Part shown: in pieces, positions 43,337 through 43,613 of the stretch
How positions within the stretch are numbered: position 1 is the stretch's first letter
Layout: each line of letters opens with the position of its first letter
NCBI RefSeq assembly: GCF_002854065.1
Contig: NZ_CP024147.1
DNA: 64,000 nucleotides
Reading direction: 5' to 3' (one strand)
Source: Escherichia coli
GTDB taxonomy: Bacteria; Pseudomonadota; Gammaproteobacteria; Enterobacterales; Enterobacteriaceae
The notes under the pieces: model-generated
What the model saw: the letters and a program-made list of their open reading frames with translations, nothing else
What the model was told of the DNA's origin: nothing
Databases searched by the model: none
Made by a program: the position numbers and the translations under genes

Positions 43337-43613
43337 GGATCCTGGGTATTAAAAAGAAGATCTATTTATTTAGAGATCTGTTCTATTGTGATCTCTTATT
43401 AGGATCGCACTGCCCTGTGGATAACAAGGATCCGGCTTTTAAGATCAACAACCTGGAAAGGATCATTAACTGTGAATGATCGGTGATCCTGGACCGTATA
43501 AGCTGGGATCAGAATGAGGGGTTATACACAACTCAAAAACTGAACAACGGTTGTTCTTTGGATAACTACCGGTTGATCCAAGCTTCCTGACAGAGTTATC
43601 CACAGTAGATCGC
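43337..43613. other. Chromosomal replication origin oriC
   Basis: AT-rich 13-mers gatctatttattt / gatctgttctatt / gatctcttattag, clustered GATC sites and DnaA boxes (tgtggataa, ttatccaca) between mnmG and mioC. Confidence 0.9.

Follow-up and report, generated by a model that had tools for sequence, protein, structure and literature searches.

What does it mean for an accessory island and for the rearrangements around two copies of an insertion sequence to lie next to a chromosomal replication origin? The question is raised by 64,000 nucleotides of an Escherichia coli genome (the window), in which an earlier note had connected such a position with high gene dosage and with a possible disturbance of replichore balance. 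The reading preferred here, with a probability of about 0.93, is that the window holds a canonical oriC and, to its left, an island, a deletion at one IS1 copy and an IS1-bounded inversion of about 46 kb that remains in one replichore. In other words, the observation is correct and its biology is ordinary and known, so that it matters little beyond annotation; all that is mildly notable is a by-product, the inversion of the dnaA region throughout a lineage. The counter-clockwise arm at 19-36 kb from oriC would show the normal wear of an IS1-rich lineage. The coordinates of all features are collected in Table 1.

Table 1. Features of the 64-kb window, from left to right
Feature	Position	Strand	Remarks
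End of inverted segment	1-7337	+	Hypothetical gene, uhpA, uhpB, uhpC, uhpT, DUF1198 gene, porin 3′ part
LamB-family porin gene, 3′ 1074 nt	6264-7337	-	
IS1 copy 1	7338-8105	- (transposase strand)	768 bp; joins porin 3′ fragment to tnaA nt 47
IS1-flanked block	8106-19177	+	tnaA′, tnaB, mdtL, yidZ, yieE, yieF, adeP, yieH, truncated effector gene
tnaA minus first 46 nt	8106-9475	+	Tryptophanase gene inactivated
AT-rich accessory island, yieH-phoU gap	16772-24438		GC 31-32% vs ~51% around
EspY/SopD-like effector paralogue 1	16908-19177	-	5′ end removed by IS1 copy 2
IS1 copy 2	19178-19945	-	100% identical to copy 1; replaces 518 bp present in strain 100416
Pentapeptide-repeat / hypothetical gene pair remnant	19946-21053	+	First gene minus 5′ 79 nt
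EspY/SopD-like effector paralogue 2	21522-23912	-	Intact, 796 aa; WEX5F at residues 33-40
mnmG (gidA)	41359-43248	-	Left neighbour of oriC; 629 codons
oriC	43359-43590	+	Equivalent of origin_of_replication feature annotated in K-12 MG1655
DNA-unwinding element	43359-43402	+	13-mers L 43359-43371, M 43375-43387, R 43390-43402
DnaA-box array	43416-43604	mixed	R1, R5M, R2, R3, R4; canonical order and orientation
DnaA box R1	43416-43424	-	
DnaA box R5M	43471-43479	-	
DnaA box R2	43522-43530	+	
DnaA box R3	43557-43565	-	
DnaA box R4	43596-43604	+	
mioC	43627-44070	-	Right neighbour of oriC; 147 codons
rRNA operon	59433-64000		16S, tRNA-Glu, start of 23S; rrnC by position

The replication origin

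The claim that the window contains oriC holds in every respect in which it can be judged. The stretch at 43359-43590 aligns without gaps to positions 3925744-3925975 of NC_000913.3, the origin_of_replication feature of E. coli K-12 MG1655, with 231 of 232 nucleotides identical. The sole difference from K-12, an A>G change at 43549, falls between DnaA boxes R2 and R3, which we take to be the region of the Fis site, and strain 100416, identical to the window over 1 kb (100%), has the same variant. The span of 277 bp (43337-43613) under study contains this stretch and, beyond its right end, DnaA box R4. The three 13-mers at its left edge are identical to those of K-12, and the AT content reaches 75% over 43346-43402. 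The motif TTATNCACA has six matches in the 64-kb window, half of them inside the 189-bp array of DnaA boxes, and GATC occurs 13 times in the 277-bp span, as against an average of 1.27 in the window for this length and no more than 7 at any other place. Eleven GATC (Dam/SeqA) sites lie inside 43359-43590. A strict regular expression for the IHF consensus gave no match in oriC, whose known IHF site is degenerate. The setting between mnmG and mioC, the 13-mers, the boxes R1, R5M, R2, R3 and R4 and the 11 GATC sites are all shared with the K-12 origin, where DnaA-ATP oligomerises on R1-R5M-R2-R3-R4 and opens the three AT-rich 13-mers, and where SeqA and the methylation of the cluster of 11 GATC sites by Dam sequester the origin once it has fired. 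All defining features of an E. coli-type oriC that can be tested on sequence are thus present, and the stretch at 43337-43613 is confirmed at this level, far beyond chance, as the canonical and already known chromosomal origin of E. coli. Of 5426 complete E. coli genomes, 5424 have the surrounding 1 kb, always on a chromosome and with a median of one copy.

Nucleotide composition agrees with this position. In a GC-skew analysis of the window, the cumulative G-C curve has its minimum at 43212, beside oriC, and the skew changes sign at the origin, from -0.041 between phoU and mnmG to +0.033 between mioC and yieP. To the right of oriC, at a distance of about 16 kb, an rRNA operon starts, and it accounts for the strong positive skew (+0.16) at the right end of the window. 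With oriC in place, the replication geometry of the window is settled and its skew profile is accounted for, down to the wrong sign over the first 7.3 kb.

The island, the two IS1 copies and gene dosage

Comparison of the window with itself yields one long repeat, which corresponds to two IS1 elements of 768 bp, 100% identical and in direct orientation. IS1 is characterized by imperfect terminal inverted repeats of about 23 bp and an insA/insB′ transposase. The size, the terminal inverted repeats (ends GGTAATGACTCCAACTTATTGAT / GGTGATGCTGCCAACTTACTGAT) and the transposase of the two copies conform to this description; both are 100% identical to elements of the closed genome CUWW06 that are annotated as IS1 transposase with programmed frameshift, and the orthologous IS1 gene of another assembly matches PF03400 (DDE_Tnp_IS1). 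No target-site duplication of 8-9 bp is seen at either copy, the flanks being GGAGCCGTC/TTGAGCCTG and TATCCTTAG/GTCATCTCA. Such absence is expected after inversion or adjacent deletion and is no argument against the identity of the elements, which are ordinary IS1. Measured from oriC, copy 1 lies at 35.3-36.0 kb, copy 2 at 23.4-24.2 kb and the island at 18.9-26.6 kb, so that the distance of about 20-36 kb given earlier for the three is accurate.

The island occupies the gap between yieH and phoU, which in K-12 is filled instead by cbrB, cbrC, yieK, yieL and bglHBFG. Its phoU-proximal half is present in 1107 of 5426 complete E. coli genomes (20%), as a single chromosomal copy at the same locus, and the phoU-proximal effector region is 98.2% identical in O157:H7 and O55:H7 genomes; because of this distribution and identity, the island is an old and well-distributed accessory locus, of the EspY type known from EHEC. 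The two large genes it carries encode paralogues with 36.6% identity (E = 1e-107). No Pfam family matched either protein, and the grounds for assigning them to an effector family are the WEX5F motif, the names given by RefSeq and the identity to O157:H7, the effector role being a predicted one. The motif reads WEFILDLF at residue 33 of the intact paralogue 2, and WEFVRDLF at residue 67 in an intact orthologue of paralogue 1, a part that is lost in the window, where the remaining open reading frame starts past it; paralogue 1 is likely a pseudogene. An N-terminal WEX5F defines the EspY/SopD-like effector family (PMC6313403); for the EspY family of EHEC O157:H7, see Tobe et al. 2006, as cited in PMC6313403. 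The EspY4/EspY5 locus of EHEC O157:H7 shares with the window the 98.2% identity and the WEX5F motif in both proteins, and RefSeq names the homologues "espY4: T3SS effector EspY4", whereas in the window one of the paralogues is truncated by IS1. The assignment of the individual genes to EspY4 or EspY5 is tentative and follows annotation. [quoted passage not shown]

Regarding IS1 copy 2, the comparison with strain 100416, which is otherwise 99.96-99.98% identical, indicates what was exchanged for it. Among the 518 bp that the element replaces were the promoter and the initial 139 nt of one effector gene, as well as the initial 79 nt of the neighbouring pentapeptide-repeat gene. One IS1 would have landed in the island, deleted these 518 bp and inactivated the effector gene.

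Two identical direct copies of IS1 bracketing 11 kb (8106-19177) have the appearance of a composite transposon, or of a unit that moved next to the origin. Nevertheless, the block is 99.955% collinear with strain 100416, and its genes keep the K-12 order tnaA-tnaB-mdtL-yidZ-yieE-yieF-adeP-yieH at the same native place. Nor is there a target-site duplication around the IS1 pair, and the left copy adjoins an inversion joint, not an insertion target. A composite IS1 transposon is rejected, since the passenger DNA is not displaced from its native context and the unit lacks a single flanking target duplication; any such origin for the block is extremely improbable. The block consists of native core genes in their native order and is not a transposed composite element.

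The position close to oriC has a calculable effect on dosage. According to the Cooper-Helmstetter relation, with an arm of 2.4 Mb and even at a doubling time of 20 min, loci at 19-36 kb from oriC are present at 98-99% of the copy number of the origin. The statement that the island and the block are in the region of highest dosage is therefore correct as far as the figure goes, but it is equally true of all genes in the window and has nothing specific to the island. The same figure, together with the retention of the island at this locus in a fifth of the complete genomes, could suggest that proximity to the origin was functionally selected, with high dosage during fast growth benefiting expression of the island or the block. 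However, the yieH-phoU gap has two alternative contents, this island or, in K-12, DNA with the cryptic bgl operon, one effector gene of the island has been decapitated by IS1, and the genes of the block are native core genes. Moreover, horizontally acquired AT-rich DNA, such as this island of 31% GC, is typically silenced by H-NS. Selection for dosage is very unlikely, and the dosage argument says little because it applies to every gene of the window, the locus is inherited and one effector gene is broken.

A probable IS1-bounded inversion of the dnaA region

The IS1-associated rearrangements announced close to the origin are indeed there, and they comprise the 518-bp replacement at copy 2 and an inversion joint at copy 1, both of them free of target-site duplications. 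At the second of these sites, positions 1-7337 of the window match strain 100416 up to position 38807 of its record, within the porin gene, and the match from 8106 onward begins at position 5073204 of that record, which is nucleotide 47 of tnaA, in the opposite relative orientation. In strain 100416 the breakpoints are separated by 46,286 bp, in the canonical layout also found in K-12, with the uhp side facing away from oriC; canonical adjacencies are present in many other assemblies. The orientation of 1-7337 is opposite to this layout, with the uhp side facing toward oriC, and its GC skew of +0.053 has the wrong sign for DNA to the left of the origin. The interval between the breakpoints contains dnaA, dnaN, recF, gyrB, rpmH, rnpA, yidD, yidC and mnmE, and its deletion is excluded because essential genes lie there. 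The simplest reading of the joint between the uhp genes with the truncated porin gene, IS1 and tnaA would be an inversion, and we infer that IS1 copy 1 is the origin-proximal end of an inverted segment of 46.3 kb, with breakpoints in tnaA and in the LamB-type porin gene beyond uhpT. Two routes to such an inversion are conceivable, namely intramolecular transposition of IS1 and recombination between a pair of IS1 copies in inverted orientation.

The closed genome CUWW06 carries the same inversion, bounded by inverted copies of IS1. Its order is nlpA - IS1(+) - toxin remnants - mnmE(-) ... rpmH(-) - dnaA(+) - dnaN - recF - gyrB ... ilvB - ilvN - uhpABCT - porin′ - IS1(-) - mdtL ... phoU ... oriC. 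This genome is a relative and not the same genome as that of the window, as it has extra deletions at both IS1 copies. By analogy, the reciprocal joint is probably present in the genome of the window itself, the second junction lying outside the 64 kb. Exact-protein look-ups of mnmE and of the porin-adjacent PTS IIA, which served as controls for the canonical gene order, retrieved only canonical layouts and no reciprocal joint in the lineage of the window. Likewise, none of 5,426 complete E. coli genomes has the exact joint of porin′, IS1 and tnaA nucleotide 47 at a coverage of at least 80%, the closest complete genomes to the window being 100416, with the canonical layout, and CUWW06, with the same inversion and more deletions. 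Among public assemblies, one contig of GCA_958432505.1 is 100% identical to positions 1-7464 of the window, and 198 blocks have a record of the truncated porin product.

Given that IS1 is a high-copy repeat, and that short-read contigs of this lineage break inside it, the joint could also be a mis-join across the repeat in an assembly of a chromosome that is in reality canonical. Against such an artefact, the joint is shared by an independent contig of 4.74 Mb (GCA_900449015.1) and by the closed CUWW06, which has the matching reciprocal side, and the truncated porin product recurs in the public blocks mentioned above. Furthermore, the deletion adjacent to IS1 differs in each genome: the joint is at tnaA nucleotide 14 in the 4.74-Mb contig and at nucleotide 47 in the window, and in CUWW06 everything through tnaB up to mdtL is gone. 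These differences imply that the copies of the joint are real and evolve independently. With the joint in independent genomes and its reciprocal side in CUWW06, an assembly artefact is rejected as hardly credible, and an inversion remains the preferred reading.

Regarding its consequences for tnaA, the gene has lost its start and, in the window, is no longer preceded by tnaC and the promoter; the broken gene predicts an indole-negative strain. A hotspot is hinted at by several unrelated complete genomes, in which IS1 likewise lies at tnaA or a short way upstream. In addition, the inversion would reverse dnaA-dnaN-recF-gyrB and rpmH-rnpA-yidD-yidC-mnmE with respect to the fork, and dnaA would start about 75 kb (36.0 kb + 38.8 kb) from oriC, as against 42 kb in K-12.

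Inversions mediated by insertion sequences are a well-known type of event, as exemplified by the IS1 and IS150 rearrangements of the long-term evolution experiment (PMC4173774). With the inversions and deletions of this kind in E. coli and Shigella (PMC4173774), the case described here shares identical insertion sequences at the breakpoints, the lack of target-site duplications and progressive IS1-adjacent deletions across relatives, but it differs from those in being small (about 46 kb), in lying in one replichore at 35 kb from oriC, and in having the dnaA operon inside. A search of the literature found no paper describing this inversion between tnaA and the porin gene. The lineage that carries it includes the 4.74-Mb NCTC-type contig and CUWW06. 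The stronger proposal, that a widespread natural lineage of E. coli has fixed a 46-kb IS1-bounded inversion beside the origin that nearly doubles the distance between dnaA and oriC, is quite doubtful. If the inversion measurably affects the control of initiation or the conflict between replication and transcription, the lineage would be a natural experiment. tnaA, the porin gene and one effector gene, all of them inactivated, are possible lineage markers.

Two minor observations concern further genes of this region. Between ilvN and uhpA (65-565 in the window) there are two hypothetical genes, a spacing presumably absent from K-12; the second is intact in 100416, frameshifted in CUWW06 and cut by the left edge of the window. 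Pfam gave no match for these genes. Outside the window, strain 100416 has a gene for a T3SS effector toxin of the ShET2/EspL2 family (PF07906) between mnmE and tnaC, where K-12 has nothing; in CUWW06 the gene is broken by IS2 and IS1. It would adjoin the reciprocal joint of the inversion.

Replichore balance

A last question is whether rearrangements so close to the origin disturb the balance between replichores, as had been proposed. Inversions change the lengths of the arms only if they span oriC or the terminus asymmetrically. In the present case, arm lengths are unchanged because the inversion stops 35 kb short of oriC and is confined to a single replichore; what it changes is the orientation of genes with respect to the fork and the distance between dnaA and oriC. 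Nearness to oriC alone, in other words, is not enough for an inversion to endanger replichore balance, and this part of the earlier note has to be corrected. The comparison of replichore lengths on a complete genome, which it had put forward, was run on CUWW06, as a carrier of the inversion, and gave no imbalance. With the centre of oriC at about 68,552 and dif at 2,378,161-2,378,188, the two arms of this genome measure 2,309,623 and 2,340,796 bp (49.7/50.3%), like those of K-12, where oriC at 3,925,860 and dif at 1,590,750-1,590,777 delimit arms of 2,306,556 and 2,335,096 bp (49.7/50.3%). For comparison, a replichore imbalance below about 10% has little or no effect on growth (PMC4173774).

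The region of dif in CUWW06 offers an observation of its own. Between dif and hipA (2,378,161-2,397,300, dif included), dif is followed by two tandem elements of about 9.6 kb that resemble filamentous phages and encode a Zot-like protein, a GspD-like secretin and a replication protein II/X. The tandem elements look like a duplicated inovirus prophage of the dif-integrating type.
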